IMG/VR virus record: IMGVR_UViG_3300030381_000254 | Span: 69,982-133,981 of that record | Source of the DNA: a virus | Length of the DNA stretch: 64,000 nt | Direction: 5' to 3' (one strand) | Shown here: one piece after another, positions 8,561-63,382 of the stretch | How positions within the stretch are numbered: position 1 is the stretch's first letter | Layout: each line of letters begins with the position of its first letter | Translations under genes and position numbers: made by a program | Notes under the pieces: generated by a model | Database searches by the model: none | The model's input: the letters and a program-made list of their open reading frames with translations, nothing else | What the model was told of the DNA's origin: nothing

Positions 8561-8565
8561 TTTTA

Positions 8566-38812: not shown

Positions 38813-40438
38813 ATGGCAGAAGGAAAAAAAATTATTAAAGGAGCTGAATCACGTGAGAAAGTAATTAGTGGTGTTATCAAGATTGCAGATGCAGTAAAAA
38901 CAACTATTGGTCCCGCAGGAAAACATGTAGTAATTGCTAACAGTATGACTGGTCCTGAAATTTCTCGAGATGGTAGTATTGTTAGTAAATCTATATCTTT
39001 TAAAGATCAAGAAGAAAATATTGGAGCTCAGATTGTTCGTAAAGCAGCTGCAAGTACTGAAGATCAAGCTGGTGATTCAACCTCAACTACAGTAGCTCTC
39101 ATTGAAGAAATGGTGATTAAAGGTCAAAAAGCAATTCGTACTGGAGCTAATGTAAATGAAATTAAAGATGGTATGAAGAAAGCTCAGAAATGGGTTACTA
39201 ACTATATTGCTAAGAATTCTATTAAGGTAGATGGTGATCTTAATAAAATTCATAAGGTAGCAACAATTTCTGCTAACAATGATTCTACTATTGGAGATCT
39301 AATAGTATCATGTATGGAAAAAATCGGAACTGATGCAGAAATTCAAGCAGATTATTCTTCTGGTATTGATACGACTATTGATATTGTTCAAGGGTTTAAA
39401 CTTACTAAAGGATGGTCTAGTCCACAGTATGTAAATAGTCCGTCTGATGCAAAATGTGTAATGGAAAATCCATACATTATAGTAGTTGGAGAGAATATTA
39501 GTAATTTCAATCAGGTAGGTCCTATTATCGAACCTTTATGTAAAAGTGGTCGTCCTTTCTTGATTGTATGTAATGATATGTCTGATCAGGTAAATGGTAT
39601 TTTTATTCTTAATACTCTTCAAGGAAATATTCGTTGTTGTGTAGTTAAAGGAGTAGACTTTGGAGATAATAGAAAAAATATTATGGCGGATTTAGCTGTA
39701 TTTACTGGTGGAACATATTTGGATCCAGAAAATGGAATTTCAATCAATCAGGCTACATTAGAGGATTTTGGTACAGCAAATAAAGTTGTAGTATCTAGAG
39801 ATTCTTGTATTATCTATGAAGGAAATGGAGATAAGAGTATTATTAGTGAAAGAATTGAAACTTTGAAAAATCGAATTTCTGATCCTGACATTAGTGATTA
39901 CGATAAGAAGAAATATAGCTCTAGATTATCTCAATTAGCTGGGGGTATTGGATTAATTAAAGTTGGTTCTGCTAGTGAAATTGAAAGGGCAAATTTAAAA
40001 GCAACCGTTGAAGATGCTATTTTGGCATCTAAGAGTGCTTTGGCAGAAGGTTGTTCTCTCGGATCTGGATATACTTATTTCAAAGCATCACTTGAATTGG
40101 CTAAAGATAAGGAGTTCTGGAAAACATTGGTTGATGATGAGATTGAAGGAGCAAAAATTCTTCAAGAATCATTGCCAATTATTATGAAATCCGTAGTAGA
40201 AAATTGTGGAGTATCTCCTGATGTAGTATTAGAAAAGATTAAAACATCTAAACCTGGTGTAGGTTTCAATGCAAAAACAAAGAAGTATTGTAATCTTGAA
40301 GAAGAAGGTGTTTTAGATTCTTCTAAAGCATTAAGAGTAGCACTCGAAAATAGCGTATCTGCTGCATCTATGATATTATTGATTGATTGTACAGTTGTAG
40401 ATGAAGAAGATAAAAACGAAGATAATTTAATTAAATAA
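38813..40438 (+). CDS. groEL: Chaperonin GroEL-like, 541 aa
   Basis: The N-terminus KIIKGAESREKVISGV...TIGPAGKHVVIA...GDSTSTTVALIEE matches the GroEL ATP-binding motifs. It lacks the C-terminal GGM repeat. Confidence 0.8.
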   Translation: MAEGKKIIKGAESREKVISGVIKIADAVKTTIGPAGKHVVIANSMTGPEISRDGSIVSKSISFKDQEENIGAQIVRKAAASTEDQAGDSTSTTVALIEEMVIKGQKAIRTGANVNEIKDGMKKAQKWVTNYIAKNSIKVDGDLNKIHKVATISANNDSTIGDLIVSCMEKIGTDAEIQADYSSGIDTTIDIVQGFKLTKGWSSPQYVNSPSDAKCVMENPYIIVVGENISNFNQVGPIIEPLCKSGRPFLIVCNDMSDQVNGIFILNTLQGNIRCCVVKGVDFGDNRKNIMADLAVFTGGTYLDPENGISINQATLEDFGTANKVVVSRDSCIIYEGNGDKSIISERIETLKNRISDPDISDYDKKKYSSRLSQLAGGIGLIKVGSASEIERANLKATVEDAILASKSALAEGCSLGSGYTYFKASLELAKDKEFWKTLVDDEIEGAKILQESLPIIMKSVVENCGVSPDVVLEKIKTSKPGVGFNAKTKKYCNLEEEGVLDSSKALRVALENSVSAASMILLIDCTVVDEEDKNEDNLIK

Positions 40439-41578: not shown

Positions 41579-43105
41579 ATGTGTAATAATAACATTACAG
41601 AACAATCATTAGAAAAATGGAAAACTTTAATTCAAGCTTGTAAAAACTATTATATTGACTCTCTTCCAACAGGAATGAGTGATAGTGAGTTTGATGAGTT
41701 GGAATTAAAGGCGATAAAGGAAGATGGTTTTTTTGCTAGAGATTATGTATTCAATACATATTTGAAAGGAACAAAAACCAAAAATAGTTGGATAGAAAAA
41801 ATAAAAAAGAAAAAAGTAGAAGGAATATCTATGTTAGATGCTCTTCGAAATGTAGAGAGAGAGTTTGGAGAAGAATTATTGTATGATTTAAAATATGATG
41901 GGGCTTCTATAGCTATTTACATAGATCCTACTACTGGGACTCCGATGAGAATCGTAACTGTAGGAAATCTAAACTTAGACAACTATGGTGTAGATCAAAC
42001 TTGGAAATTAATAAGCTTTCTTCCGAAAAAGTTTCCAAAAGGTATTGTTGCTATTCAAGCCGAAGCTCTTGTAGATTTAAATAGGTTGGGAGATTCTGAC
42101 CCAGATACTGCAAGACAAAAGGCTAATGGATTAGTAAATTCTAAGTATCTTGTATCAGAAGTAAATAATTATTTAACATTAAGAGCTTATAGATTTTATA
42201 TTGATCCTAATATCGATAAGGAAAGTTTTTGGAAATCGTATAATTATGATTTTAGAAATGTAATAAATTCATTTGAAATCACATATTCTCCTATAGACGG
42301 ACATATTTTATTTGCACCAGCATCAATTTGGACTTTAAAGGATTTAGAATCTGCTCCTGGATATACAGAAACGTTAAAAACTATTACTCCAACCGGTTAT
42401 TTTTTAAATGATGGTTGGGTGATATACAACAAGTTGGGAGTATGTATAGGAGCGCTTAAATATTCTGGAGCTGGAAATGATACTGAGTTGGTAAAAACAG
42501 AAGTATTAGGAATTCAATGGAATTCTCAAGTTGCTAAAGGAAAAGATAGTTGGTCAGCAAATATTTTAATTAATCCAATACAGATAAAAGGATGTACTAT
42601 AAAAAAACCTTCAGCAGGAAGTGTTAGTAAAATGGTATCAAAGAAAATAACTCCTGGATCTATTGTTAGTATTATAATGGCAAACTCTACTATTCCAATG
42701 GTTGGAGAATCATTTAAAGAAGGTAATGGAGATTTTCAATGGCCTACTTGTCCATGTGGATATACAATGTCTGAAAAAGATGTATATGGAAGTTTATTAA
42801 AGTGCGGTAATCAACTGTGCAGTGAAAGAATGGGAAGAATGAGATCATATTTATCTTCTCTTCAACCAAATTTAGTTGGATTTGATTTAAATAAATATCT
42901 TGTTATTGATAGGTTTAAGTGGGAGAACACTAATATAGATTTATCAATATTATTCTCATTTGTTGAAAATAACAATGAGCAAGGATTTTTTGAATACCTA
43001 GCAGGATATTTAACTACTCAATTACAGCTTAGAAATTTAAACTTAGTTTGGAAAGCAGGATTTATTGTTTTAAGAGAATATTATGAAAAGTTTATTAGAG
43101 TTTAA
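41579..43105 (+). CDS. ligA: NAD-dependent DNA ligase (compact LigA-like, no BRCT)
   Basis: The N-terminal Ia-like LIQACKNYYIDSLPTGMSDSEFDELELK fits AxxxYYxxDxPxxSDxEYDxL. The adenylation motif is LKYDGASIAIY (KxDG). A C4 zinc finger CPCGYT...CGNQLC is present. Confidence 0.65.
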   Translation: MCNNNITEQSLEKWKTLIQACKNYYIDSLPTGMSDSEFDELELKAIKEDGFFARDYVFNTYLKGTKTKNSWIEKIKKKKVEGISMLDALRNVEREFGEELLYDLKYDGASIAIYIDPTTGTPMRIVTVGNLNLDNYGVDQTWKLISFLPKKFPKGIVAIQAEALVDLNRLGDSDPDTARQKANGLVNSKYLVSEVNNYLTLRAYRFYIDPNIDKESFWKSYNYDFRNVINSFEITYSPIDGHILFAPASIWTLKDLESAPGYTETLKTITPTGYFLNDGWVIYNKLGVCIGALKYSGAGNDTELVKTEVLGIQWNSQVAKGKDSWSANILINPIQIKGCTIKKPSAGSVSKMVSKKITPGSIVSIIMANSTIPMVGESFKEGNGDFQWPTCPCGYTMSEKDVYGSLLKCGNQLCSERMGRMRSYLSSLQPNLVGFDLNKYLVIDRFKWENTNIDLSILFSFVENNNEQGFFEYLAGYLTTQLQLRNLNLVWKAGFIVLREYYEKFIRV

Positions 43106-45050: not shown

Positions 45051-45586
45051 AAATTGATGGAACTATTATTATTACAGATCCTTGTTATTTTGTAAAAAAG
45101 GATGGAGATTGGTCTAGCGAAGATACTGGATTTAATTATGTAACTTGTAAAATAAATCCTTCTTTAGGATTTACAGATTATATTTGGGAAGCTACTAAAG
45201 TTGGAGACGGAAGATGGAAAGTCTCTGAAATGAATAAAGTTATGTGTCAACTAGAGTTAGAAAAATTTGTTGAGGACATAGAGGATGCTTATTATAGTTT
45301 TTATAAAAATTCTAATATTGATAATCAAATAAAGTTAGAAGATCTTATAAGATCTAGAAAAACTATAGGTAGATTTTGTGTAGACTCTGGAAGTTTTGGA
45401 GTATTTAAATTAGATGAAGTATTGAAATACTGTCCAGATTTTCTTTCTAGTTACGGAGATTGGTGTTATACTATTATTCCTAATTTTATTGGGGATGTTA
45501 ATTTTTATGAAGATTCAAATAATCAAGTTCATATTTTAGGAGTAGGTAATAAATCTTTTTATAGTAATACAGTATCATGGTTGTAA
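45047..45586 (+). CDS. Hypothetical protein, 179 aa
   Basis: ORF only. Confidence 0.35.
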   Translation: MKIDGTIIITDPCYFVKKDGDWSSEDTGFNYVTCKINPSLGFTDYIWEATKVGDGRWKVSEMNKVMCQLELEKFVEDIEDAYYSFYKNSNIDNQIKLEDLIRSRKTIGRFCVDSGSFGVFKLDEVLKYCPDFLSSYGDWCYTIIPNFIGDVNFYEDSNNQVHILGVGNKSFYSNTVSWL

Positions 45587-46008
45587 AAATAGTTAATAAA
45601 TCAAATAATCCAAATCCAAAGTACGCTAAACCAGGGGACAGTGGAATGGATATAAGAACTTTTATAGATGAACCCGTAGTGTTAGGACCTTTGGAAAGAT
45701 ATACTTTTCCTACAGGTATTTACTTAGATATTCCTGAAGGTTATGAAATTCAAATTCGTCCACGAAGTGGATTAACTAGTAATCAAGGATTAGTAGCTCA
45801 ATTAGGAACTATTGATTCTTCTTACACGGGAGAGCTAAAGATTACATTAATAAATCTTAGTAATGAAACTCATACTATTAATTCAGGTGAAAGAATAGCT
45901 CAAATAGTTTGTGCAAAAGTTGAAATCATAACTTTGGAAGAAGTAGATAAAATTGAAAAAATAACTGAAAGAGGAGGAAATGGCTTTGGACACTCAGGAT
46001 TACAATAA
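45577..46008 (+). CDS. dut: dUTP pyrophosphatase (dUTPase)
   Basis: The motifs are AKPGDSGMDIRT, IRPRSGL, GTIDSSYTGEL, RIAQIV and a C-terminal GGNGFGHSG. Confidence 0.8.
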   Translation: MVVKIVNKSNNPNPKYAKPGDSGMDIRTFIDEPVVLGPLERYTFPTGIYLDIPEGYEIQIRPRSGLTSNQGLVAQLGTIDSSYTGELKITLINLSNETHTINSGERIAQIVCAKVEIITLEEVDKIEKITERGGNGFGHSGLQ

Positions 46009-46816: not shown

Positions 46817-47872
46817 ATGGGAAAAGATAATCAAAAGAAATTACTAGCATTAGATTATGGATATAGTTCTCTGAAGACAAGTTTTTATGATGAAAACGGG
46901 GTTCTTCAATTTGAGAAATTTATAAGCGCAGCAGCTAAATTGGGAGGAAAAGATTTAGTAGAAGATCCTAATGATGATACTATATTTTGTTTAAATGGTG
47001 AGTATTATGTTTTAGGAACTCCGGCACTTAAAGTTCCTAGATCTTTATTATATAGATTAGAGACATATGAAGATATGAAAGCTACTTATCCTATTTGGCT
47101 TTCTTATTTATTGAAAAGATATGGCGGTGATAATTGGTTAGATAGATTTGATCATGTAATTCTAGGTTTATCTTTAGCATTTAGCGATAAAGCTTCAGAT
47201 TTATTAGATCATTTATATGAATCATTAAATATTACTAAAGATAATTTCTTTCTCTGTCTTCCTCAAGGATTAAGTTGTAAACTTGCTTATCAGCAATTTG
47301 GTTTGGATTTGAGAGAAGTATCTAAAAAGAATGATGTGAAAATGCGAAATTACTTAATAGTTGATGGAGGATTTTTAAGTATTGATGCTGCACAAGTTCT
47401 TGATGGAAAATCTTCTGCTGGTGCTGCTATAGGATTAGCTAATACTGGGGTTATCTGTATAGTATATAAAATTATAGATTATTTATTCCAGAATTTTGAG
47501 ATGAAGATGAGTGTAAAAGAAGGTCAGACTGTATTGGATAATAACGGCTTATTTACACGAAGAATGAGAGAATATGATATTTCAGATAAAGTAAAAGAAT
47601 TTACTAGAGAATATCTTATTAATGTAATTAAACTATTAGAAGAAAAGTTTAGTGAATCACTAGATTCCATTGAAGGAATATTAGTTTGCGGAGGTCTTGC
47701 TTATTTCTTTAATAAAATGAAAGATGATGAGATTTTAAATAAAGAAATAGAAAAACACTTTCCAAAATCATTTATTAAGTTAGGTGGAAATGGTAGTGAT
47801 AGTGAATTCTATAATTCAATCAGTTATCTTAAAATTGCGGAAAAATTAATCGATGAAGGTCGTTTAAATTAA
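46817..47872 (+). CDS. Actin-like ATPase (ParM/Alp family)
   Basis: Phosphate-1 is LALDYGYSSLKTSF. Phosphate-2 is IVDGGFLSIDAA. The adenosine/GG motif is ILVCGGLAYFF. At 351 aa it has ParM-like size. Confidence 0.6.
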   Translation: MGKDNQKKLLALDYGYSSLKTSFYDENGVLQFEKFISAAAKLGGKDLVEDPNDDTIFCLNGEYYVLGTPALKVPRSLLYRLETYEDMKATYPIWLSYLLKRYGGDNWLDRFDHVILGLSLAFSDKASDLLDHLYESLNITKDNFFLCLPQGLSCKLAYQQFGLDLREVSKKNDVKMRNYLIVDGGFLSIDAAQVLDGKSSAGAAIGLANTGVICIVYKIIDYLFQNFEMKMSVKEGQTVLDNNGLFTRRMREYDISDKVKEFTREYLINVIKLLEEKFSESLDSIEGILVCGGLAYFFNKMKDDEILNKEIEKHFPKSFIKLGGNGSDSEFYNSISYLKIAEKLIDEGRLN

Positions 47873-51206: not shown

Positions 51207-52103
51207 ATGGAAAAAGTATTAATAATTTATCACAGGGTAGACTTTGATGGTGCATTTTCTGGATGTATAGCTAATAATTGTGCTAAGGAGTGCGGGTATG
51301 AAACTGAATTACTTGGGTGGACTTATGGGGATGATATACCTGATATTAGTTATTTAGAAAAATATAATGAAATTATATTAGTGGATTTATCATTTCCACC
51401 CGAAGTAATGTCTTATTTAAAAATTCAAAATAAATTTAGGGTTACTTGGATAGATCATCATACTACAGCAATTAACAATTCATATTCTCACAATTATTCA
51501 GATATTAATGGTCTTAGAAGAGATGGAACTGCTGCGTGTGAGTTATGTTGGGAATTCTTTTATCCATCATTATTAATCCCAAAAGTAATAGAGTATATAG
51601 GATGTTATGATGTTTGGGATAAGACTAGATATTCTTGGGATAATATTGTTTTGCCATTTCAATATGGATTGAGAACTAGATATAATATTAAAGCTTTTAT
51701 GTTATCACAAGTATATAAAGATCTGATTTTTGAGAACATAGATTTAGATGAAATTATTCATGAAGGAGAAATAGTTTTAAAATATTTAGATAGAAATTGG
51801 AGAAGTGCTTGCAAAGTTTATTCATTTGATGTTAGAGTAGCTGGAAAATATAAAGGAATATGTATTTTAACAACTGAATTTACTAGTAACATTTTTAATT
51901 CAGTTCGGGATAATTATGATGTAGTTATATGTTGCAATAGAAGAGGTCCTGACGTTTATAATTTAAGTATGTATAAAGATACTAATAAATGCCCAGAATT
52001 TAGTTGTGGTGGATATAGATGGTTTAGTGGACAAAAATGTGCAGCAGGATGTACTGTGAATTTTGAAGAATTTAAGAAATTAATAACAGAGTGTGAAATT
52101 TAG
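51207..52103 (+). CDS. DHH-family phosphoesterase (NrnA/RecJ-like core)
   Basis: IYHRVDFDGAFSG matches the DHH motifs I-II (HxxxDxDG). WIDHHTT is motif III (DHH). Confidence 0.5.
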   Translation: MEKVLIIYHRVDFDGAFSGCIANNCAKECGYETELLGWTYGDDIPDISYLEKYNEIILVDLSFPPEVMSYLKIQNKFRVTWIDHHTTAINNSYSHNYSDINGLRRDGTAACELCWEFFYPSLLIPKVIEYIGCYDVWDKTRYSWDNIVLPFQYGLRTRYNIKAFMLSQVYKDLIFENIDLDEIIHEGEIVLKYLDRNWRSACKVYSFDVRVAGKYKGICILTTEFTSNIFNSVRDNYDVVICCNRRGPDVYNLSMYKDTNKCPEFSCGGYRWFSGQKCAAGCTVNFEEFKKLITECEI

Positions 52104-52176: not shown

Positions 52177-52338
52177 ATGAAAAAAGGTTATATAATTTCA
52201 GGAATTACAGTGGTAGTATCCGCTGTTATTGCTATTGTCTTGTATGCAAAAAACAAGGCAAAGGAAGGGTTTGACGAAATTCGTGATACTACATCTGAAG
52301 ATAATTCTTCTTCAGGGGAAAGTAGTAAAGAGAAATAA
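52177..52338 (+). CDS. Small membrane protein, 53 aa (not in ORF track)
   Basis: MKKGYIISGITVVVSAVIAIVLYAKNKAKEGFDE... has a single TM. The promoter-like motif lies 30 nt upstream and a terminator hairpin downstream at 52358..52385. Confidence 0.4.
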   Translation: MKKGYIISGITVVVSAVIAIVLYAKNKAKEGFDEIRDTTSEDNSSSGESSKEK

Positions 52339-52357
52339 AGACAAATCAACGAAAATA

Positions 52358-52396
52358 AAGACTTAGGACTAGTCCTAAGTCTTTATTTTGCTTTTA
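52358..52396 (+). terminator. Rho-independent terminator after small membrane ORF
   Basis: Hairpin aaagacttaggactagtcctaagtcttt followed by attttgctttt. Confidence 0.65.
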
Positions 52397-52596
52397 CTTA
52401 TCATTGAAAGCCTAATAATTGAATCATAGAAAAATAGTTATAGAAGTTTATAACTAATTTTTTATGATTTTTTATTTTCTGTAATGTAAAAAAGTGCAAT
52501 AAAATTCCCTTATTTCCTTATAAAAGAGAGGGTAAAGTTTTACCCTCTTTAATTATAATAAATAATACTTAAATTAATCAATTAAAAGACTAAAAA

Positions 52597-53694
52597 ATGG
52601 AAGACGAATTTTTGTTAGATGAAGAGGAAGACTTGGAAAACCAAGGATATCTCGGGCAAGACAATGACGATGATTCTGACAATAATGATGATTCTGGTAT
52701 TAGCCTTGAAGATGCGGAGGAAGCTAGAGAAAAGGTAGATGAATCACAGTATCAGGGTAAGATGACTAAAGATGAAATTTGGTTATCTACTGCATATGAT
52801 GATATCATTGCTGCTGGGAAAAAAGATACTAGTAATGCTATAGAAGATGCAGTAACTACTATAGTTCAAGCTAATCCAAAGCACACATCAATTACTACTA
52901 TTGGAAATATCATTAAAGATCTATTTCATAAGCAAGGTCACTCTAGAATGGTCAATTCACTCTATACACCTGATACTATGTTAAGAGGTGAAGATGTTGA
53001 TATTGATTTTAGAGATGAGGATGATTCTGGATTTAATAAAGCATATGCTGAGGAAGCCAGAAATCAAATTGCTAGATTTATAGATTTCTTAGCTAATAGA
53101 GATCTTTCTAAAGATTCTGTTGTATCTAGAAGAAGAAAGCAAAGACAAATTCCTGCTTTTATAATATTTCTATTTTCTTCTGGAATGTATGACTTGATAT
53201 TAGATTGTCCTACAATGCCAAAAGAATATGATACTCAGATTAAAGAAGCTTTAAGAAAGATAATGAAAGCTAAGTATGATATTGTAGAAGAACTAGCTAA
53301 GAAGTATGAAGAGATGGGAAGACAGCAAGTAGCGGATAGAGTAAGAAAATTACAATTATCCTGGTTTAATAAAGAACCAGCTGAAATTCGATCTTCTTCA
53401 GAGTATTCTGATCTAGATCTTACTTATGATGATGTATTAGTTTATCGAGAATACAGAGGAAGATTCACTAATACTTCTAGAGCTATTACACAAGATGTTA
53501 TTTCAGATTTAATTGAAGTAGTAGTAGATAAAGATTCTGGAATTTTTGAAAGATTAAAAGATAAAACGCGTTCTGATGCAATAGCAGATGTAAAGCAAGT
53601 TTATAAAGAATGGTCTAAAGAAAATTCTAATGATTCTGAACTGGCTACTAAGATTATTTGGAAAGATGTTTCAGAAATAGTTAAATCTAATTAA
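52597..53694 (+). CDS. Acidic protein upstream of RNAP operon, 365 aa
   Basis: The N-terminal ~60 aa are extremely acidic (DEEEDLENQG...DNDDDSDNNDD). Its position suggests a transcription-associated factor, but no motif was recognised. Confidence 0.4.
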   Translation: MEDEFLLDEEEDLENQGYLGQDNDDDSDNNDDSGISLEDAEEAREKVDESQYQGKMTKDEIWLSTAYDDIIAAGKKDTSNAIEDAVTTIVQANPKHTSITTIGNIIKDLFHKQGHSRMVNSLYTPDTMLRGEDVDIDFRDEDDSGFNKAYAEEARNQIARFIDFLANRDLSKDSVVSRRRKQRQIPAFIIFLFSSGMYDLILDCPTMPKEYDTQIKEALRKIMKAKYDIVEELAKKYEEMGRQQVADRVRKLQLSWFNKEPAEIRSSSEYSDLDLTYDDVLVYREYRGRFTNTSRAITQDVISDLIEVVVDKDSGIFERLKDKTRSDAIADVKQVYKEWSKENSNDSELATKIIWKDVSEIVKSN

Positions 53695-53710: not shown

Positions 53711-54843
53711 ATGTCAGTATCTCTTGAGTTACTAACCGATGAAGCAATCATCGATTATACTAAAAGTGATGGAAAGGATAGAGTTCTCTATAATCATAGA
53801 GACTTAGACTTAAAGTATAACGGTATACAACCTATTTCTGGTGGAGTATATGATGTTGAAATATTCGGATCTCCTATGGAAGATAGATGTATCTGTGGAA
53901 AAATTCGACAACCTTCTATGGAACCTTGTCCTAATTGTGGAGCTAGAGTATTTTCTAGAGAAGAGGGACTTAGAAGATTTGCCAGAATAGAATTACCTTT
54001 CTATTATTTGAATGATTTGCGTTTTGATATCTTTAAAGAATTATTTGAAGATATATTTAAAGAAAGCAAAATAGTTTTAGATTTCTTCGGGGATGATCTT
54101 AGAAGAAATGGTTATAGTGCGAGAGGAGCAAAGAAATTAGGTATTAAAGTATTCGATACCTGCCAGTTTGATTATAATCCTACTACAAAAGAGCTTAAGA
54201 TTTCTGAATTTATAGATGATGAATCTAAATGTTCTTATGAAGGACTTATGAAGATTATAGAAGAACATTTTCCTGGTCGTCTCGTAGAATATAAAAAGTT
54301 GATTAATAGGTATTACTTAGTACAGCCAGCTATGATGAGACCTTTTACCCTTGGTGTAAAAAACGGAAAAAAGATAATGGGATCTCATAAACTTAGTATC
54401 TGGTATTCTATTATAATTAGACTTTGTTGTGTAGAAGATACTAAATCTAATGACTTAAATTATGCGGAAGTAACTTCTAAATTTAAGACTCCAGGTGAGA
54501 AAGTTAGATATACAGCACTTCTAAGAGCACTTCTTAATACAGGTAAGAAAGAAGCTACGGCACTTCTTAATACGTCTAAGGAAAATTTAGCGCGTGATCT
54601 TTATTCAGTAAGAACAAAGAGTTCTGCTAGATGTCCAATCATTCCTAGTACTACACTAGCTATTGATGAAATTTCTATACCTATTCATATTGCATATGAA
54701 ATGTGTAGAGAAGGATTCTTAGACTATTTAATGAAAGAATTAAATTTTACTAAAGAAGAGGCTCTTAAAGCAACAAAAGAAGAGTATAATAATCCGGAAA
54801 CTTTAAAGATGTTTAAAGAATTTGCGGAAAAACAAATCGTACT
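53711..54843 (+). CDS. rpoC: RNA polymerase beta' subunit, exon 1 (N-terminal Zn-finger region to ...EKQIVL)
   Basis: CICGKIR...CPNCGARV matches the beta' N-terminal Cys4 zinc finger. The exon ends with U at 54843, which pairs with the intron IGS GGTACG at 54858..54863. Confidence 0.7.
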
Positions 54844-55728
54844 AGATTTTTCACTGGTACGTTAGGTGAAAATCCTGAAACAAATGTAAATTACGTTTGT
54901 TTAATTTTGTGTATTGCTGGAAATTAATTATAATTAATAATCAGCAGTTGAATCTATTATAAAAGCAGAATAATAAATATAAAAAGAAGAGCTTATGAAG
55001 ATATTTAGGATTAATTTATTTTCTACACTATCTTCTACAACTCCATGGAATCGATCTGAACATATGAAACAACTTCATGCTGAAGGAAGATATAAAGGAA
55101 CTTCTAAGATAGGGTTGTGGAATGTTAGCGAAGAAAAAAGACAAAGAATGGCTAATATACGATTAGCAAATTCTTTAAATAAAAATAGTAAAGGATATGG
55201 TAGTGAGTGGCATATGAGACTAGCTAACAGAACTTTACTGCATAATAAATTTCAAGGAGAACAGGGTTATTTATACTTTGTTAGATTTCCTATGAGTATC
55301 AAGGTTGGTTTTTCAAAAAATTGGGAAAGAAGACTGAATTATCAATTACCTAACTTGAATCATATCTTAGGTGGTAAAGTTATAGCAATCATATCAGGAC
55401 CAACAAATGATTTAGCCGATCTTGAATTTGATACATTTGTTAAATTTCAAAATTATACAAAATTATCAGAGGATGGAACTAGATATACTGAATTCTTAGA
55501 CTTATCAGTAAGAAAAGAAGTTTATGAGTTCTTAAAATCTAGAGTATCTGATAATAATGAGTTAGAATTTTTAATACAGAATCCGCTTTTATAATAAATT
55601 CAATTCAACGACTATGGACAAAACTAAGATTAGTGTTGTGATAACCTAGTTTTTGATAATATAGTCTTGCAGGATAGAGATATCCTGGTAAAGAATGATT
55701 ATAATGACGTAATATAATCATTCTACAG
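54844..55728 (+). mobile_element. Group I self-splicing intron 1 in rpoC (885 nt) carrying a homing-endonuclease ORF
   Basis: P element ATTGCTGGAAA is at 54913, Q element AATCAGCAG at 54938, R element TCAACGACTATGG at 55605 and S element GATAATATAGTCTT at 55655. R and S form the P7 pairing GACTAT/ATAGTC. A P9 hairpin lies at 55669..55687. There is a U at -1 and an omega G at 55728. Joining the exons gives QIVL|VNRQPSLHEY..., which aligns to E. coli HPVLLNRAPTLH. Confidence 0.75.
54995..55594 (+). CDS. Intron-encoded putative homing endonuclease (GIY-YIG-like motif)
   Basis: A free-standing ORF lies inside intron 1 between the Q and R elements. GYLYFVRF...IKVGFSKNWERRLNYQ resembles GIY-(10)-YIG-...R. 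Confidence 0.5.
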   Translation: MKIFRINLFSTLSSTTPWNRSEHMKQLHAEGRYKGTSKIGLWNVSEEKRQRMANIRLANSLNKNSKGYGSEWHMRLANRTLLHNKFQGEQGYLYFVRFPMSIKVGFSKNWERRLNYQLPNLNHILGGKVIAIISGPTNDLADLEFDTFVKFQNYTKLSEDGTRYTEFLDLSVRKEVYEFLKSRVSDNNELEFLIQNPLL

Positions 55729-56709
55729 AGTAAACCGTCAACCTTCATTACATGAGTATAGTACTTTTGCAATGAAGTTAAGAATTCATGAGGATTATAC
55801 AATACATTTTCCTATTCAAGTATGTGAACCATTAAATGCTGACTTTGATGGTGATACTGTATCAATACAGTTAGTTCCGCCTGAAGCAGCTGAAGAGACT
55901 TATGAAAGAATGAGTCCTAGATATGTTACAATTTATAAAAAGAATAATGAACCTATTTATAAATTTAATCACGAAACACTTAATGGTTTAGCAGTTGCGA
56001 CTGAATATTCATACTCTGATTTGGAAGAATTGAAAGATCCTAAATATTTTTATACTGATTATGTTCAGTTATTAAAGGATGTAGAAATAGAAAAGAAAAT
56101 CAAAGTTGGAACACCGATTGTATTTACAGGAAAAATAGGGAATGTAGATTATCAATCTAAAGTTACAAGTTATGGTAGACTTCGTATTTCTAAAATACTT
56201 GATGCTGATATAGATAAAATTGGTATATTTAGTAATGAGTTTGAACGTATTAGTGCTAAGAGTGCAGCTAAGTTAAGTCTTTATTTAAATCAATTCGAAG
56301 ATGGAGTTGAAAAGAGAAAAGCACTTACTAAATTTGCTCTTCGCGTAGTTAGCATGGCTGGAGTAGTAACGTTTGATTATAAAACACTGTATGCTGATTG
56401 TGATACGGAGACTTATAAGAGAATTTGTAACGTAGCAGATTCTAAAGAACTTACAGATAAACAGAAACTTTTGATAATGACTCAAGAATTTAAGAAATAT
56501 GAGGACGAAGTTTCTGCAAGTTTTAGTTCTGATTTGAAAAATGAACTTGATAGAGCAGCTCGTGTTAAATTATCATCTATTGTAGCAATGTCAATGCCAC
56601 AGTTTATAACTTCAGGAGTTGATGAAAAACCTGTAATTACTCGTGGAACATTGTTATCTGGTTACACAGAGAAAGATTATCAATTACATGCAATAGAAAA
56701 TCGAAGCTT
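55729..56709 (+). CDS. rpoC: RNA polymerase beta' subunit, exon 2 (catalytic NADFDGD region); 3' end approximate
   Basis: VNRQPSLHEYSTFAMKLRIHEDYTIHFPIQVCEPLNADFDGD aligns to E. coli NRAPTLHRLGIQAFEP...NADFDGD. A bridge-helix-like SGY motif lies near the end. The exon end was chosen at the U at 56709, 70 nt upstream of the P element, the same spacing as in intron 1. Confidence 0.6.
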
Positions 56710-57201
56710 ACAATCTATTAAAGTTAGTGGTGTTAAAATATTAAGCTCGAATATGGTAGCCCACTTAAAATAACAATTAAATGCTGGAAAGAATATGTAA
56801 ATATAAAATCAGCAACTTATATAATCTTTAAATCTATTTTATGGCGAGATTGGAAAAAGTTTTAGAAATTTTAAAAGTAATTGGAGGAATTGCTAAAACT
56901 ATGCTTTGTGGAATGGAAGAGTATAGAAGAATTCAAGAAACAAGAGCATATAGAGAAAATCAAAAGAAAAAAGTAAAATATTTACCAAAGCCAAAGAAAA
57001 GATATAAAAGAAATAAATAAGATCAACGACTATGTATTGTTAGATTAAACAAAGTTTAATCATGATATAGTCTAATCCTATGTGATAAACATAGGCAGGA
57101 TGGGATTTTAGGAAGCGCTTTTAATTTATATTATAGCCTAATATCCTTGAATGACCTTCGAGCGGATATTTAACTCGTCAAATATCTTTCCTTTTAAATA
57201 G
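56710..57201 (+). mobile_element. Group I intron 2 in rpoC (~490 nt), boundaries approximate
   Basis: P element AAATGCTGGAAAG is at 56779, Q element AAATCAGCAAC at 56806, R element ATCAACGACTATG at 57022 and S element CATGATATAGTCT at 57061. A P9 hairpin lies at 57076..57095. G at 57201 is the only omega-G candidate consistent with phase, given the in-frame stop at 57170. The intron contains a 59-aa Lys-rich ORF at 56841..57020. No canonical U.G P1 pairing was found, so the 5' splice site could instead be at 56718 or 56724. Confidence 0.55.
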
Positions 57202-58357
57202 CTACGTATATCATGAAGGAGAAGATACTGAAAATGATGGTCTTTTGATACCTAGATACAAAGCTTTAGGACGTACTGCACCTAATGGAAAAGTATATCC
57301 AGAAAAGCCATTAGTAAACGGTTCAGAAGATGATTTGGTACCAGTTAGATCAATCATTACAAAAAGAAAAGGTGACACTCATACGATTACTCCTGACCTT
57401 ATAGGAACTAAATTCAAATTTACTGATGGAGCAGCTATTGGTCTTTCTTTTGCAACATCCTTAACTGAGGGAACAACCCAAAGTGCATTAGGATTAAAAC
57501 ATGGAGGTCATGAACGTGTTTTACAAATGGACGGAATACTTAAAGCTCCTAAACAATGCGAATTTAGAGAAGAAGGAAGATGGATTTATTTAAAAGTTAG
57601 AGGTGGAGAATTAAAATATCCAAGACCTGATAACTGGGTAAGTGTAGGAAAAGAAAAGTTTGAAAAGGGAGATACTATAGGAACAGCATATAATACTACA
57701 TCTCCTATTTATAAACTTAATGCACTTATTAAATTGATGAGAGCAAAGGGATCTGATGGTACTAGATACTTTGAAAAAGATAATGTTATAGTTTCTGACT
57801 CATACTGTTATAAATCGGGGACGATTCATTACAAGGAGACTAAGGATGGTGATATAGAAGTATGGATTGGAGATATTCAATATGATTATAATCCAATGTG
57901 TATGTATTATTATCCTGATGGTACTGAAATAAAGAAATATCAAAGATTCTGCAGTGGAGTGGTTAATATGAATCACGTGATTCCAGGTATGAATAATAAT
58001 TTGAATGATATTTATTTAATTTTCAGAAATCAATTCTATACATTAACCGACGGAAAATTTGCATCTACTGGATTAACTGATTTACATTCAACTCAAGAAG
58101 AATTAGTAGAGTTATTGTTTACTGGTTTAACTGATATTATTGTAGATACTGATACTCAGAAAATTGAAGATATCCAATATTTGGGAACTCAATCTGGTGT
58201 ATTAAATAAGAAGTCATTCTATACAGTATTATCTTATGGTTATTCTAGTAGAGTAGTTAGTAGAGCCCTCAAGGGGGATTTAAATCTTAGTGGTGATGTT
58301 ATGACAGAAACTATATTAGGATTATTGTTAAATAATAAACTTGATGATAAAAAATAA
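57202..58357 (+). CDS. rpoC: RNA polymerase beta' subunit, exon 3 (trigger-loop region to C-terminus); 5' end approximate
   Basis: ...YVYHEGEDTENDG resembles E. coli VVTEDDCGTHEG. GAAIGLSFATSLTEGTTQSALGLKHGG aligns to [28 protein letters not shown]. The ORF caller placed the start at the TTG at 57245. Confidence 0.6.
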
Positions 58358-58665
58358 TGGGAACTATTAAATTTGAAATAGATCTTCCAGAATTTGAAAA
58401 AGAATTAAGTTTGAATTTAATTATTCGTAGAGATGGTGAGGTAATTTATAATACCTCATCCTCTTCTACAAATAACTCTTTTTCAAAAAATAATGGTAGA
58501 TTGGAAAATTCTGTAGAAAAAGTAGATAAAATAATTCCCCCTATCGTGGAAGGTAGTGGAAATTCATTATCTAATAATATAGGAAATAAGGTAAGAGAAC
58601 AATCTATTACATCAAAAACTCCTAAAGGAAGAGGAGGTAATTTGATGAATTTGACAGATATTTAA
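58357..58665 (+). CDS. Hypothetical protein between rpoC and rpoB, 102 aa
   Basis: ORF whose start overlaps the rpoC stop. Ser/Asn-rich. Confidence 0.35.
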   Translation: MGTIKFEIDLPEFEKELSLNLIIRRDGEVIYNTSSSSTNNSFSKNNGRLENSVEKVDKIIPPIVEGSGNSLSNNIGNKVREQSITSKTPKGRGGNLMNLTDI

Positions 58666-58686
58666 TAAAAAGAAGAGAATTTAATT

Positions 58687-59037
58687 ATGAACGATAATTA
58701 TTATAAAATTACTTTATCATATGAAATTCCATATAACGTCATAGATTCTCAAGATCCTAATGTAATACAGGCTAGAAATATACTTTACGAAAAATTAAAA
58801 GATAGTATTTATCCTAAATATGAGAAATTTTCAGTTAAACTTGTATTATATCAGTTAAAAGATACATTTAATTATTTAGTTACATATGAGGCTTTCTTTA
58901 GATCTTTAGATGGTAAACCTATGGAAGAATATGTAGAGGCTCGTGATCTAAAAGATAGTATTAAGAAAGAATTAGAAGATTTTTTTAATTCAGTAGATTG
59001 CGATTATAAGCAGTTAAATATTAAAACATTATTATAA
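58687..59037 (+). CDS. Hypothetical protein, 116 aa
   Basis: ORF whose stop overlaps the rpoB start. Confidence 0.35.
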   Translation: MNDNYYKITLSYEIPYNVIDSQDPNVIQARNILYEKLKDSIYPKYEKFSVKLVLYQLKDTFNYLVTYEAFFRSLDGKPMEEYVEARDLKDSIKKELEDFFNSVDCDYKQLNIKTLL

Positions 59038-62000
59038 TGAGTAATTTTAATCAATATTTTAGAAACACTGGAGTAAAAATAATGGTAGATAAGTTCTTCA
59101 GACAGAGTAATATAGATAAATATAATCCAGATAATAAAATTACTTCTTTGGATTATGAAATTATCGAAGAACCACCTCAGCCAGCTTCTTACTATATAGA
59201 AAATGGTTTGACTGCTACTCATAAAGTAAGAATTAATTATACCATTAATGAAGACGATGAACTAAAATATGCAGAATTTGAAGTACCTAAAGAAATAGAT
59301 GGAGCTTTTATTATAGAAGGAGCTTATCGTATTTCAACTAACAAAATGAATGCAGATTTTGACTGTCGTATTCGTATGTCAGGTACTGGAGAATATACAG
59401 TAAAATTCGATTATGATAGAACATATGATATAAATAAAAAGATTTTAAAGATAACTAGAATAAATCCAGATCTAGGAATTTCAGAAAAGGCTATGGATAT
59501 TCACTTTGATGATATCGATAAGACCTTAGAAACTGATAAAAAAGATATTCTTAAACTTACTGAAAGACAGTCTAAGAAATTGATGATTAAGTTGGACCTA
59601 GACTATAAACCGGAGTATATAACACAAAAGCTTATTCAAGATTGTATGGCTTTTGGAGACGATAGACTTAAGGATTTAATCATTGATAAAACTATAGAGT
59701 CTGTACCTAATGGATTTATGAAATATCTATTCAGAGATAATAATCGAAGAAACTATTATTCTGCTTGTAGAAGAATAAATTCATACTTTACTAAATATGG
59801 AAGAATACAGGATCAAGTTACTGCTATTACTACTTTATGTTTCAGATATTTTAAAGGAGCAAAAGATATCTCTACAGCAGAAACAGGAATTCAGGTTCCT
59901 CCTGGTGTAAACTCTATTAATCTAGAAGCAATCTCTAATAAAATTGTTATTCCAGATAGCATAGCATATAATACCACATTTAGTGATTTGATAGATATTG
60001 CTGATACACCTATTAATAATAATACTAATCTCCAGAATTCATTAACGGTTTCATGTCATATTACTGATGATGATATACTTTTTGATGTTTATGATAAAAA
60101 TTTTATGAGGATAACTATCCCTTACATCGATTATCTTAACCATAAAGTATGTGCATCTGAATTTGTAGATTACGAAACTAATACTATAAAACCTAATAAA
60201 GATGGACAAGTAGAAGTTAAGTATAGAATGAAACGTAGAATGGTTCCTGTAGAGGAGATAGAATTAATAGACCTACATCCTGACTATAGATTATCCGGAA
60301 CTACTAGAAGAATACCATTTGTAAATTATACTGATAGTGTTCGTATTAGTATGGGTACTTCTATGTTAAAACAAAGTATTCCATTAGTTAATGCAGAACG
60401 ACCATTAGTTGATACTGGTAGATCGGAAGAGTTAAAAGATAATATATTGAATGAGAAATTTCAATATCCAGAAGGAAAAGTAAAAGATATTACTGACGAT
60501 AAAGTAGTAATAGAGTTACCTGATGGAACTGAAACTGAAATATTAAGACGTACGGCTATTCAGAGTATAAATGATGTCGCTGTATTTACAGAGCCTAAAG
60601 TAAAGATTGGACAAAAAGTAAAACAAGGAGATATTATTACTGGAGCTGTAGGACATACACTAGATACTTATAAATCTGGAGTTAATGCATTAGTTCTTTT
60701 CCATGCATATCATGGATTAGTTAATGAGGATGCTTTGGTTATTTCAGAGTCTTTTGCAAATCGAATAGCATCTTATAGCATTATAGATTTAATGATTAAT
60801 GTTAAAAATATTAGTGCTATTAAGTGGATTGCTCCTATTGGAACTAAAGTTAAATCTAAAGATCCAGTAGTTACATTATATAAAGCAGTTCGTCTAGATG
60901 CTATAAATGCTGCTTTACAGGAAAAATTAGGAGGATTATTTGGAGAAGGAAGAGATTTAACCGAATATACTATTGAGGATCATCTAAAAGTACCTAATAA
61001 TATAGATGAAGCTTGGGTATCTGACGTTATGGTTCAAGAAATGAAGAATCCTAAAATTCCAAAATCTGTAAAAGCTCCTGATTACTCATTTGCGCATACT
61101 TCTCAAGATGTTATTAATGAGTATGAGAAAAATAAAGATAGAAAAGTAATTTATGATAAATTTCCAGAATATGTAGCAGCTGATACTTTAGATCCGATTA
61201 ATATGGATCCAGATGCATATAAAATTGTTTATACAGTTAGAATAAGACTGATTAAGAGAACAATAGGTATGATTGGATCTAAGATTACATCTAGATATGG
61301 AGGTAAAGGAGTAGTTAGCTGTGTAAAACCGGACGAACAGATGCCTATTATGGTAGATAAATTTGGAAATAAGACGAGAGTTGAAGTAGTAATGAATCCT
61401 TATTCAACTATTAATCGAAAAATTCCTAGTGTTCTTATGGAATTTGCTCTTGGAAATATTGCACATAGATTACATGATCTTGTAGATGAGTATAAGAAAA
61501 CAAAAACTGGACAGAAGAAAATTAAACCATTGTTAGAAAAATATTATCCAGGAAGATTTGACTCTATGACTATTGAAGAAATAATAGATCGTCATAATTC
61601 AAGTCCTATTGAAGAAATGTATTATTTTAATGTTGGTTGTTTTTCTACTAAATTCACACCAGAGTTAGTTAATGAATGGTCAGATGAATTAGGAGTAGAA
61701 TCTCAGAGTAAGATTCTAATGCCTGAAAATGAACTTACTGATCTCGATGAATTAAAGGAAAATTTAGATTCAGAAGAATACGAACAGGTGGTGAAAAATA
61801 TAACAGGTAAATTTATTGAAGTTGATAAGCCTCTAATGACTGGATATATGTGTTTAGAGGAGTTATATCATATACCTAGTTACTCTAATAAAGTTACCAC
61901 TAGTTTGTATGGAGTGGATGTAAATCCTAGAAGAGACGAACCTATATTAGGACGGGGAAGATATCGTTTAACTGGACAAAAGATTGATGAAATGAGTTTG

Positions 62001-62225
62001 TCAGTTCTTTTATCTAGAAATGCTAAGAAATTCATAGAAAGTACTCGTAAGGATACAGCTACTGAAGATAATCAGTTATTCTTGAATAATCTTCTTGGAT
62101 TAGGATTAACTGTGGTTGATGATAAAGGATTTAATCAAGGAGGTAGTTCTTTGAAGAAAGAATTAAATGATCTTAAAGTTAAATTCCGTCGTAAAAATAA
62201 TTTATTAAATTTGGGAGATAAATAA
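59037..62225 (+). CDS. rpoB: RNA polymerase beta subunit (compact, 1062 aa)
   Basis: MGTSMLKQSIPLVNAERPLV aligns to the beta motif NMQRQAVPL...PLV. GRGRYRLTGQKIDEMSLSVLLS aligns to GGQRFGEMEVWAL. Confidence 0.7.
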   Translation: MSNFNQYFRNTGVKIMVDKFFRQSNIDKYNPDNKITSLDYEIIEEPPQPASYYIENGLTATHKVRINYTINEDDELKYAEFEVPKEIDGAFIIEGAYRISTNKMNADFDCRIRMSGTGEYTVKFDYDRTYDINKKILKITRINPDLGISEKAMDIHFDDIDKTLETDKKDILKLTERQSKKLMIKLDLDYKPEYITQKLIQDCMAFGDDRLKDLIIDKTIESVPNGFMKYLFRDNNRRNYYSACRRINSYFTKYGRIQDQVTAITTLCFRYFKGAKDISTAETGIQVPPGVNSINLEAISNKIVIPDSIAYNTTFSDLIDIADTPINNNTNLQNSLTVSCHITDDDILFDVYDKNFMRITIPYIDYLNHKVCASEFVDYETNTIKPNKDGQVEVKYRMKRRMVPVEEIELIDLHPDYRLSGTTRRIPFVNYTDSVRISMGTSMLKQSIPLVNAERPLVDTGRSEELKDNILNEKFQYPEGKVKDITDDKVVIELPDGTETEILRRTAIQSINDVAVFTEPKVKIGQKVKQGDIITGAVGHTLDTYKSGVNALVLFHAYHGLVNEDALVISESFANRIASYSIIDLMINVKNISAIKWIAPIGTKVKSKDPVVTLYKAVRLDAINAALQEKLGGLFGEGRDLTEYTIEDHLKVPNNIDEAWVSDVMVQEMKNPKIPKSVKAPDYSFAHTSQDVINEYEKNKDRKVIYDKFPEYVAADTLDPINMDPDAYKIVYTVRIRLIKRTIGMIGSKITSRYGGKGVVSCVKPDEQMPIMVDKFGNKTRVEVVMNPYSTINRKIPSVLMEFALGNIAHRLHDLVDEYKKTKTGQKKIKPLLEKYYPGRFDSMTIEEIIDRHNSSPIEEMYYFNVGCFSTKFTPELVNEWSDELGVESQSKILMPENELTDLDELKENLDSEEYEQVVKNITGKFIEVDKPLMTGYMCLEELYHIPSYSNKVTTSLYGVDVNPRRDEPILGRGRYRLTGQKIDEMSLSVLLSRNAKKFIESTRKDTATEDNQLFLNNLLGLGLTVVDDKGFNQGGSSLKKELNDLKVKFRRKNNLLNLGDK

Positions 62226-62227: not shown

Positions 62228-62872
62228 ATGGAAAATAATAGTTGTTTAATGCTTAATTGCACACTTTATCTTCCTGTATCATTATCTTCCATATTTGATA
62301 AAGAAGATTTAAAAGATACAGGAATTGAAAATGAATCACATGTTACATTACTATATGCAGCTGGGAAAGAGATACCTAAAGATAATCTATTAAGTGATAT
62401 CGAAACAATTTTAGGAGATAGTGATTTTAGTTTTGATAATTTTATGGAATTCATTAAAAATGAAGAAACTGGAAAAACTGATAGAGTAATGAATTGTTTT
62501 GAACTAGGATCTTTTGAGAATGATAGCGATTATATAGTCCTAAAGATGAAACAAGAATGTAAAATATACTTTACATTAGGTCTTATTAATAAAGGACTTA
62601 GAGCTAAATATGGAGTATCATCAGAATACTCATATACACCTCATTTATCTTTAGCAGAGCTTAAACCAGGAACTGCAAGTAAGTATCTAAATAATCCAAA
62701 ATTAAATCTAATTTTAGGAGATAGTTTTGTATCATTTGAAGATTTAGTAATTTCATACGGTCCATCAAATACACCAGTAGATAGGGAAAGATATAATTTA
62801 ACAACATTTAATGTAGTTGATTATTTCTTTCATACTGAGAGAAATCGAAAAGAAAATATGGAATTAGATTAA
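62228..62872 (+). CDS. 2H phosphoesterase (LigT / cyclic phosphodiesterase-like)
   Basis: Two H-x-T/S motifs are present, SHVTLLYA and TPHLSLAE, with the spacing typical of the 2H superfamily. Confidence 0.6.
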   Translation: MENNSCLMLNCTLYLPVSLSSIFDKEDLKDTGIENESHVTLLYAAGKEIPKDNLLSDIETILGDSDFSFDNFMEFIKNEETGKTDRVMNCFELGSFENDSDYIVLKMKQECKIYFTLGLINKGLRAKYGVSSEYSYTPHLSLAELKPGTASKYLNNPKLNLILGDSFVSFEDLVISYGPSNTPVDRERYNLTTFNVVDYFFHTERNRKENMELD

Positions 62873-62904
62873 ATTTAAAGATAATTCGATAATTTTTGCA
62901 AAAA

Positions 62905-62940
62905 AGAGTAGTGAATTAATTCACTACTCTTTTCCTTTTA
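62905..62940 (+). terminator. Rho-independent terminator after 2H phosphoesterase gene
   Basis: Hairpin agagtagtgaattaattcactactct followed by tttcctttta. Confidence 0.65.
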
Positions 62941-62945: not shown

Positions 62946-62975
62946 CCTTCAAAGCCTTATATATGAGAAAATAAA
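62946..62975 (+). promoter_or_regulatory. Conserved phage promoter-like motif
   Basis: ccttcaaagccttatatatgagaaaataaa lies about 30 nt upstream of the gene at 63005. Confidence 0.5.
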
Positions 62976-63004: not shown

Positions 63005-63382
63005 ATGGAAAATGGAACAAAAAGAGAAATTGCTTTCTGGTCAGGAATATTATCAATCCTTTCTTTAATGGGGATAGGAATAGATCAAAGCATATGTGCA
63101 AATAAGTATAGATTGATAAATCTGTTAAAAGATTATAAACTCAGCTTAACGTATCTAGAAAACAGAACCAAAGAACAAAAAGAAAAGGGAGAGGATGTTG
63201 GAATGAGAATAGTTGAGCTAGGAAGTTTACAGGTAGAATCTAGCAGTATCATAGCAGAATTAGAAGCTATGAATAAGTACAAATTGTACATTAATTATTT
63301 GAGAAAAGGTTCAGAGTTAAACATGAAGTTGGACAAATTTTTCAAAAAGTTTAACTCTTTAAAGAAACAAGTAGAGGATTAA
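63005..63382 (+). CDS. Hypothetical membrane-associated protein, 125 aa
   Basis: The N-terminal hydrophobic segment is IAFWSGILSILSLMGIGI. The promoter-like motif lies upstream and a terminator downstream. Confidence 0.4.
   Translation: MENGTKREIAFWSGILSILSLMGIGIDQSICANKYRLINLLKDYKLSLTYLENRTKEQKEKGEDVGMRIVELGSLQVESSSIIAELEAMNKYKLYINYLRKGSELNMKLDKFFKKFNSLKKQVED

Follow-up and report, generated by a model that had tools for sequence, protein, structure and literature searches.

A predicted phage operon for an unsplit, intron-bearing multisubunit RNA polymerase

We analyzed a 64-kb stretch of viral DNA (IMG/VR record IMGVR_UViG_3300030381_000254, positions 69,982 to 133,981; hereafter the window, to which all coordinates refer), which represents part of a genome of about 370 kb. 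An operon on its + strand appears to encode the phage's own multisubunit RNA polymerase, made of unsplit β′ and β subunits, with the β′ gene interrupted by two group I introns; we put the probability of this interpretation at about 85%. Both introns would have to leave the mRNA to restore the β′ reading frame. In the mechanism that we propose, splicing removes one intron immediately ahead of the active-site codons and the other within those of the bridge helix, which would yield a complete β′. With moderate confidence, the enzyme would work without α and ω, as the phiKZ and AR9 polymerases do, and would not need the host core enzyme to transcribe phage genes. Also with moderate confidence, an acidic protein encoded upstream of β′ (acid365), and perhaps two small proteins encoded between β′ and β (S102 and S116), may act as assembly and/or promoter-specificity partners, and a CCTT-N6-7-CYTWATAWWTG box would be a candidate phage promoter.

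The β gene (59037..62225, + strand; 1062 amino acids) is uninterrupted in this genome, and its product scored 64.6 bits with the Pfam model RNA_pol_Rpb2_6 (PF00562), where 23.4 are required (E=1.2e-17). The spliced β′ passed RNA_pol_Rpb1_2 (PF00623) with 68.7 bits against a cut-off of 25.3 (E=1e-18). A profile of 13 β′ sequences matched bacterial β′ in PDB at 7e-42, and its alignment to 6wmr_D spanned residues 38-97, 283-853 and 969-1087, representing the Zn ribbon, the clamp to trigger loop region and the C-terminus in collinear order. The β profile matched Thermus β at 1.7e-41, the C-terminal half of the AR9 non-virion β (7s00_C) at 5e-30 and phiKZ gp71 at 1e-5. Identity to the bacterial subunits was about 24-26% over one third of the length, and the NCBIfam rpoB models scored β far under their cut-offs (NF001616, 121.7 bits against 896; TIGR02013, 100.6 against 801), as expected for distant homologues and not for captured host genes. 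By these scores, β counts as homologous but not orthologous to cellular RpoB.

In β′, the Zn-ribbon residues C60, C62, C73 and C76 are invariant in the 13-sequence alignment, as are D416, F417, D418, G419 and D420 of the NADFDGD motif (residues 414-420). The bridge helix, complete after splicing (SGVPSSGYLTRQ), is invariant across the alignment, and so is the histidine of the trigger loop (TEGTTQSALGLKHGGH), which aligns to bacterial β′. The β subunit carries the motifs MGTSMLKQ, NRYGGKGV and GQKIDEMSL (family consensus GQKIGEMEL), and these blocks align to Thermus β. The second Zn site of bacterial β′ (E. coli C814, C888, C895 and C898) has been lost: the aligned positions are EGEDTEND and VRSIITKRKGDTHTITPDLIG, with no cysteines clade-wide. 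This site is a feature of the bacterial lineage and does not define the wider β′ family. No α, ω or sigma family gave a Pfam match over threshold among the roughly 40 window open reading frames (ORFs) scanned. The only match to any such family, a weak one of RNA_pol_A_bac to the ORF at 63005-63382 (E=0.034), the product of which has a hydrophobic N-terminus, was judged to be due to chance.

An original prediction, made from the DNA letters without database searches, had proposed a phage-encoded, bacterial-type β′/β pair with β′ assembled from three exons. This is supported by the Pfam and profile placement, the phage neighbours and the intron-less homologues, and the predicted β of 1062 amino acids at 59037-62225 on the + strand is likewise correct. 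The Zn ribbon, NADFDGD, trigger loop and β motifs that it listed are all present in our alignments to homologues and bacterial chains, and its remark that α and ω are not evident agrees with the Pfam scan above. It had rightly noticed the loss of the second Zn site but had taken IPRYKALGR as its replacement, a segment that aligns to bacterial ERALGR. Its description of the subunits as markedly smaller than bacterial ones holds in comparison with E. coli but not with small bacterial subunits such as Thermus β (1119 amino acids), from which the difference is about 5-10%. The profile check that it suggested placed β′ and β in the RpoC and RpoB families, whereas acid365, S102 and S116, which it had considered as possible unrecognized small subunits or sigma-like factors, matched neither α, ω nor sigma.

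We then defined the structure of the β′ gene. The ORF map of the region contains ORFs at 53711-54865, 55772-56773 and 57245-58357, the limits of which differ from those of the exons. Exon 1 (53711..54843, + strand) encodes the Zn ribbon, the clamp and the region up to ...AEKQIVL, and has a gapless junction relative to intron-less homologues. Exon 2 (55729..56733, +) begins with VNRQPSLH, includes the NADFDGD active site and the Pfam Rpb1_2 match, and extends to ...SIKVSG(V). Exon 3 (57154..58357, +, stop codon included) encodes the (V)PSSGYLTRQ bridge helix, the trigger loop and the C-terminal region. Joining 54843 to 55729 places KQIVL directly before VNRQPSLH, without a gap against the intron-less homologues. 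Joining 56733 to 57154 gives SIKVSGVPSSGYLTRQ, an exact match to the homologues that closes the only alignment gap; it replaced a junction of 56725 to 57161, which had left a 5-residue gap against them. Removal of both introns gives a β′ of 1113 amino acids. A database search returned uninterrupted homologues of 1113-1158 amino acids with 55-72% identity and 100% coverage of the spliced β′, together with homologues of about 715-750 amino acids that cover 64% of it; the latter come from relatives that carry only one of the two introns. The conserved in-frame VNRQPSLHEYSTFA precedes ATG 55772, the first start codon of ORF 2, and could therefore be expressed only after splicing. Similarly, the conserved in-frame PSSGYLTRQISFLLNSYVYHEG precedes TTG 57245, the start codon of ORF 3.

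The original prediction was thus correct in recognizing three β′ pieces but had used the ORF limits as exon borders, where the true ones are 53711-54843, 55729-56733 and 57154-58357, and its estimate of about 1090 amino acids for β′ gives way to 1113. The SGY segment that it described as a bridge-helix remnant belongs to a complete helix, which looked like a remnant because intron 2 sits inside it. Intron number differs between relatives. The closest ones in IMG/VR (L005-L024, L035, L038, L039 and L045), which are 93% identical in exon 1, contain more introns than the window, such that β′ spans about 8 kb compared with 4.6 kb here and β is interrupted too; other relatives have a β′ gene without an intron. 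The intron content is therefore highly polymorphic within the lineage.

Intron 1 (54844..55728, +; 885 nt), whose helices were read from the sequence, has in its peripheral loop an ORF for a putative homing endonuclease of 199 amino acids (54995..55594, +), which matched phrog_681 'endonuclease' (E=1.8e-7) but nothing in Pfam or PDB; homologues of this ORF occupy the same site in relatives. Intron 2 (56734..57153, +; 420 nt), supported by covariation and splice-site rules, lies within the bridge-helix codons and contains a lysine-rich ORF of 59 amino acids (56841..57020, +), which is 59-61% identical in close relatives and has no Pfam or PHROG family match. In both introns, the base just before the 5′ splice site is a U that pairs with a G in P1, and the last intron base ahead of the 3′ splice site is G. 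P1 of intron 1 is formed by CGUACU, the exon-terminal U of which pairs with G, and GGUACG, and the intron ends in ...ACAG. P1 of intron 2 is formed by AGUGG(U)GU and GCCCACU, with the U-G pair at the 5′ splice site, and this intron ends in ...AAUG. The core TCAACGACTATG...ATATAGTC is common to both, and so is the helix order P3(5′)-P4/5-P6(ORF)-P7(5′)-P3(3′)-P8-P7(3′)-P9 (assigned by eye for intron 1), with an identical P7 sequence. By eye, intron 1 forms P3 (UUUUGU/ACAAAA), P7 (GACUAU/AUAGUC) and two hairpins, P9 and P9.1, both of which differ between relatives by compensatory changes (in P9, CAGGAUA/UAUCCUG versus CAAGAUA/UAUCUUG). For intron 2, we scored the structure (P1, P3, P4/5, P7, P8, P9 and P9.1) on nine homologous introns: 96.7% of the cells were paired as proposed, and 13 pairs had changed on both sides, compared with 1.5 in shuffles and 0-3 in slid controls. 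In intron 2 of the relative L001, P1 has undergone a compensatory change from U-A to C-G, and P8 is wholly replaced. Both inserts are predicted to be group I introns, and their predicted ligation is in frame and matches the intron-less homologues. Like the phage group I introns in T4 td/nrdB, SPO1, Twort, AR9 and the Jug phages, they interrupt an essential gene at highly conserved codons, involve an endonuclease ORF in a peripheral loop and vary in their presence among relatives; unlike them, both escape Rfam RF00028.

The transcription unit spans 52.4-62.9 kb, with the gene order acid365, β′, S102, S116, β and D214. Upstream, it is bordered by a terminator-like hairpin at the end of the small gene before it (52352..52389, +; 17-pair stem with a T-rich tail), and it ends at another (62902..62933, +; 14-pair stem, then a T run); on the + strand, no terminator-like hairpins were found inside the unit. 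TAATG overlaps of stop and start codons join β′ to S102, and S116 to β. All relatives with identities down to about 40-55% share this gene order, and clades in which β′ is 28-35% identical have the order [275-291 amino acids]-β′-[105-217 amino acids]-β. A small gene always sits between β′ and β, even in these distant clades. The features of the region point to a single operon.

The first gene of the unit, acid365 (52597..53694, +), lies directly upstream of β′ and is syntenic in every relative. It encodes an acidic protein of 365 residues (isoelectric point 4.6) with 25 D/E within the first 60 residues, and its AlphaFold2 model has a mean predicted local distance difference test (pLDDT) score of 69, residues 145-355 being helical. 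It had no significant sequence or fold match, including to any PDB chain, and no similarity to phiKZ gp68 (hhalign probability 0.2%); a weak Pfam match to PqqD was judged to be due to chance. In distant clades, its place upstream of β′ is taken by a homologous protein of 275-291 amino acids (hhalign E=2e-6, probability 89%), and this homology is the strongest evidence that the upstream protein works with the polymerase. We consider acid365 a candidate polymerase-associated factor.

The start codon of S102 (58357..58665, +; 102 amino acids), a gene delineated by alignment, gene overlap and synteny, overlaps the β′ stop codon. The N-terminus of the protein (MGxIKxELDLPEFEKEL..DGEV) is conserved and of invariant length, and the peptide GGNMMNxDF is conserved at the C-terminus; the linker of 20-70 residues between them is hypervariable and rich in Ser, Thr and Asn. 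The layout resembles a tether that docks at both ends, and the protein has no Pfam or PHROG family match. S116 (58687..59037, +) is an acidic protein of 116 amino acids, and its stop codon overlaps the β start codon. An alignment built from a search of representative clusters showed that the S116 family comprises 18 such clusters, all of small free-standing proteins. Its confident model (pLDDT 90; β-α-β-β-α-β) resembled generic ferredoxin-like domains only, with no match to α, Rpb11 or ω, and a weak Pfam match to a NACHT helical domain was judged to be due to chance. We detected no similarity between S116 and the small ORFs between β′ and β in distant clades. The gene at this position encodes 105-217 amino acids and differs by clade (L032:11171-11824; L040:11111-11581; L004:13164-13481); by eye, the 217-amino-acid version resembles two tandem S116-like units, with a similarity below detection.

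The last gene of the unit, D214 (62228..62872, +), encodes two H-x-T/S motifs, HVTLLY and HLSLAE, which are characteristic of the 2H phosphoesterases, LigT and the anti-CBASS protein Acb1 among them. It matched Pfam 2_5_RNA_ligase2 at just E=0.26 and is syntenic in relatives at 36-67% identity. D214 probably shares the transcript as a passenger and is not a subunit of the polymerase. In the relative L003, a stop codon interrupts the D214 homologue, and a small ORF in the matching region was flagged 'Acb1 (weak)'.

A promoter-like box, CCTAATAATTG (52411..52421, +), of the form CCTT-N6-7-CYTWATAWWTG lies 186 nt upstream of the first operon gene, and the next one, CCTTATATATG (62955-62965, +), lies just past the operon. 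This motif occurs 10 times in the window, compared with 3.1 expected from shuffles, and a broader form 15 times compared with 4.7 expected. The boxes are at 921(-), 31210, 32808, 36394(-), 36531(-), 36576, 38250, 38482, 48548, 49751, 52132, 52411, 62955 and 63435. They (CCTT-N6-7-CYTWATAWWTG(A)) are intergenic, are oriented with the downstream gene, lie about 35-190 nt before its start codon and are mostly missing from the tail-gene arm. In relatives, CCTAATAWWTGA-like boxes are found upstream of acid365. Sigma-70-type promoters were not enriched in the window (70 found, 70 expected); the box does not match sigma-70 promoters, and we also take it to differ from the Bacteroides TAnnTTTG element. 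The recurring box is a candidate phage promoter. It also precedes the small gene ahead of the operon, an ORF of 53 amino acids (52177-52338) that has its own box (52132), a strong terminator hairpin (52352-52389) and no family match.

How does this enzyme compare with known phage polymerases? In phiKZ and AR9, β and β′ are each split into two or more polypeptides, two polymerase sets are encoded, and a gp68/gp226 factor is present (PMC7598289, PMC13282480). The system described here resembles the non-virion polymerases of these phages (PDB 7OGP, 7S00) in being a phage-encoded enzyme of the β/β′ type, with no α or ω found among the scanned ORFs. An extra phage-specific promoter-recognition factor may be a further shared feature, although acid365 is unlike gp68. 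It differs from them in that β is one ORF of 1062 amino acids and β′ one product of 1113 amino acids (a single ORF in many relatives), in that we report a single polymerase set, and in that no fifth subunit of the gp68/gp226 type was recognized among acid365, S102 and S116. AR9-like genes also carry group I introns. Compared with bacterial RpoB and RpoC, the enzyme shares the Zn ribbon, NADFDGD, bridge helix, trigger loop, β motifs and the use of one polypeptide per subunit, but it is only about 24-26% identical, lacks the second Zn site and lineage-specific insertions, has the β′ gene before that of β and comes without an α or ω gene among the scanned ORFs.

Unsplit β and β′ genes are also a feature of the multimeric-RNAP-encoding Caudovirales (mReC), metagenomic tailed phages in which the two genes are adjacent and some of which exceed 200 kb and have T4-like capsid genes (Weinheimer & Aylward 2020, PMC7481178). 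Two of our contigs, L058 and L059, are listed as mReC in that paper. In pairwise phmmer comparisons, the window β′ scored 62-73 bits against their β′ (about 900 amino acids), 65-93 bits against bacterial β′ and 350-580 bits against its own lineage (the L032, L004 and L040 clades). Since the mReC scores are no better than the bacterial ones and far under those within the lineage, we regard the latter as a lineage of its own among the phage polymerases with full-length subunits. Contigs that agree with L032, a member of a distant sister clade, in sample identifier and protein sizes appear in PMC7481178 only in the raw list of 266 contigs. On these pairwise scores, the enzyme is placed in a large metagenomic lineage apart from both the split phiKZ/AR9 polymerases and the mReC clade. 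A 102-kb viral contig, L075, contains a single ORF of 2115 amino acids (4038-10385) that matches both β and β′ of the window (46 and 56 bits), which suggests a fused β-β′ gene in another phage lineage.

The window has a low G+C content (about 24-33%) and contains phage genes, with tail-fibre genes on one arm and non-structural genes, including those for a phage-type GroEL and a ligase-like protein, on the + strand arm. None of 50,697 phage records was matched by the 8.5-kb region in a megablast search, and tblastn against phage records found only β of AR9-like and Staphylococcus jumbo phages, at 22-26% identity. Exact and close β homologues are on contigs of 250-404 kb; IMG/VR contains dozens of relatives on viral contigs of up to 401 kb, and one relative came from a wolf gut sample. 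Jug phages have genomes of 360-402 kb with 27-30% G+C, the standard code, T4-like structural genes and on average 18.5 group I introns per genome; their predicted hosts are Bacteroides/Phocaeicola, and a single RpoC serves as the marker gene (Sci Adv 2026, PMC12880540). Thousands of their group I introns were found with subtype-specific models, and about half of those tested were confirmed by RNA reads (PMC12880540). Our relatives have genomes of 345-404 kb, the G+C content here is about 28% with the standard genetic code (code 11), and further common features are many group I introns, free-standing endonuclease genes, a single RpoC per genome and an origin in gut metagenomes. The source is most likely an uncultivated jumbo phage of the animal gut, a Jug phage, as far as the published description allows such a likening. 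That paper names RpoC only and does not describe the polymerase, its introns, β or the partner genes.

Some of our results speak against parts of this interpretation. Rfam (RF00028) reported no group I intron, either at the gathering score in the whole window or at E≤10 in 54.6-57.5 kb, and its scan of the region gave only chance snoRNA-like matches; the inserted ORFs and low G+C content probably defeat the model. None of acid365, S102 and S116 had a detectable likeness, in sequence or fold, to α/Rpb3-Rpb11, ω/Rpb6, sigma-70, phiKZ gp68 or solved structures, so that their proposed role is derived from synteny only, and S116 and S102 are not recognizable at the sequence level in distant clades. 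The box heads the polymerase operon itself; if it were specific to this polymerase, the virion would have to bring the enzyme along, or a different promoter would have to drive its first synthesis. Finally, the likening to Jug phages was drawn from their published description. The failure of Rfam would also fit a gene organization in which the three β′ ORFs are separate polypeptides, split as in phiKZ, AR9, cyanobacteria and archaea, and the inserts are intergenic DNA with a selfish endonuclease gene. A split β′ is the rule in phiKZ-type phages, and ORFs 2 and 3 have possible start codons (ATG 55772 and TTG 57245). However, initiation at these codons would drop the conserved in-frame VNRQPSLHEYSTFA and the bridge helix PSSGYLTRQISFLLN upstream of them, many relatives have one uninterrupted gene for 1113 amino acids, and the junctions follow the rule of U at the 5′ and G at the 3′ splice site with P1 pairing, intron 2 showing strong covariation. 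Jug-phage introns in general also have metatranscriptomic splicing support (PMC12880540). We consider separate β′ polypeptides very improbable and a cellular origin of the region, as DNA of a bacterium or episymbiont of low G+C content wrongly binned as phage, hardly credible. The latter would explain why the best solved-structure matches are bacterial β and β′, but it conflicts with the tail-fibre and other phage genes in the same window, the order of β′ before β without ribosomal-protein neighbours, the location of all relatives on IMG/VR viral or phage-like contigs of 250-404 kb and the scores far under the bacterial equivalog cut-offs.

Two further alternatives accept the intron-bearing phage genes and concern how their products would work. 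The phage β′ and β might form a hybrid with host α2, ω and sigma and redirect these host factors to phage DNA, given that the subunits are full length and as close to bacterial β′/β as those of any phage polymerase, that a clamp-helix-like segment is seemingly kept (by eye, against the E. coli sequence) and that no α, ω or sigma homologue is encoded nearby. Against this stand the identity to bacteria of about 24-26% over a third of the length and an NCBIfam rpoB score of about 120 bits where more than 800 is required, as well as the conserved phage partner genes that travel with β′/β. Moreover, the characterized phage multisubunit polymerases neither need nor bind host α, ω and sigma (PMC7598289, PMC13282480). 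A hybrid enzyme therefore seems improbable to us. A stronger case can be made that acid365, S102, S116 and D214 are passengers or regulators that share the transcript and are neither subunits nor specificity factors: they have no likeness in sequence or fold to known polymerase subunits or initiation factors, S116 and S102 are confined to one clade, and D214 looks like a 2H phosphoesterase. On the other hand, the upstream protein is homologous and in the same position across clades in which β′ is only about 30% identical, a small gene is always found between β′ and β, and overlapping stop and start codons tie S102 and S116 to the catalytic subunits. We give the passenger view appreciable weight, at somewhat less than even odds. 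An autonomous phage polymerase with an intron-bearing β′ gene remains our preferred interpretation. A bolder version of it, which we put forward tentatively and think may well be wrong, holds that the X-β′-Y-β cassette (here acid365, β′, S102 with S116, and β) is a third architecture of viral multisubunit RNA polymerases with full-length catalytic subunits, in which the small, ferredoxin-like S116 and the bipartite S102 would replace the α2/ω assembly platform and acid365 would be a new non-sigma promoter-specificity factor that reads the CCTT-N6-7-CYTWATAWWTG box, in phages that would rank with the most abundant jumbo phages in the human gut.

The window also encodes proteins outside the polymerase unit. 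Just upstream of it is a DHH-family phosphoesterase (51207-52103; phrog_4771, 2.5e-25; Pfam DHH, 9e-7), and a metallophosphoesterase is encoded on the other arm (29557-30276(-); phrog_1649, 5e-26). An actin-like protein of the ParM/Alp type (46817-47872; phrog_691 'partition protein', 1.6e-18; weak Pfam MreB-like_C and ALP_N) may be of interest as a cytoskeletal or segregation protein in a jumbo phage. The phage GroEL (phrog_5725, 3e-121), the protein resembling an NAD-dependent ligase and a dUTPase are encoded at 38813-40438, 41579-43105 and 45577-46008, respectively. A highly repetitive protein of 2708 amino acids (9549-17675, - strand) contains repeats that match dozens of tail-fibre and collar PHROGs.

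The presence of a multisubunit polymerase in this phage group and its intron load have already been published. What our analysis adds is the precise gene structure, the placement of the enzyme outside two characterized or named lineages and the conserved partner genes without detectable homology. The corrected exon borders show how introns conceal essential genes during the annotation of such genomes. Phage multisubunit polymerases are the simplest working enzymes of the cellular type and show which subunits are dispensable. Whereas the phiKZ and AR9 types have fragmented catalytic subunits, the present lineage appears to have whole subunits that are always accompanied by their own partner genes. 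The lineage occurs in widespread gut phages, which probably infect Bacteroides, and it would provide a tractable target for studying polymerase assembly without α and ω, initiation without sigma and the escape of gut phages from host transcription control.

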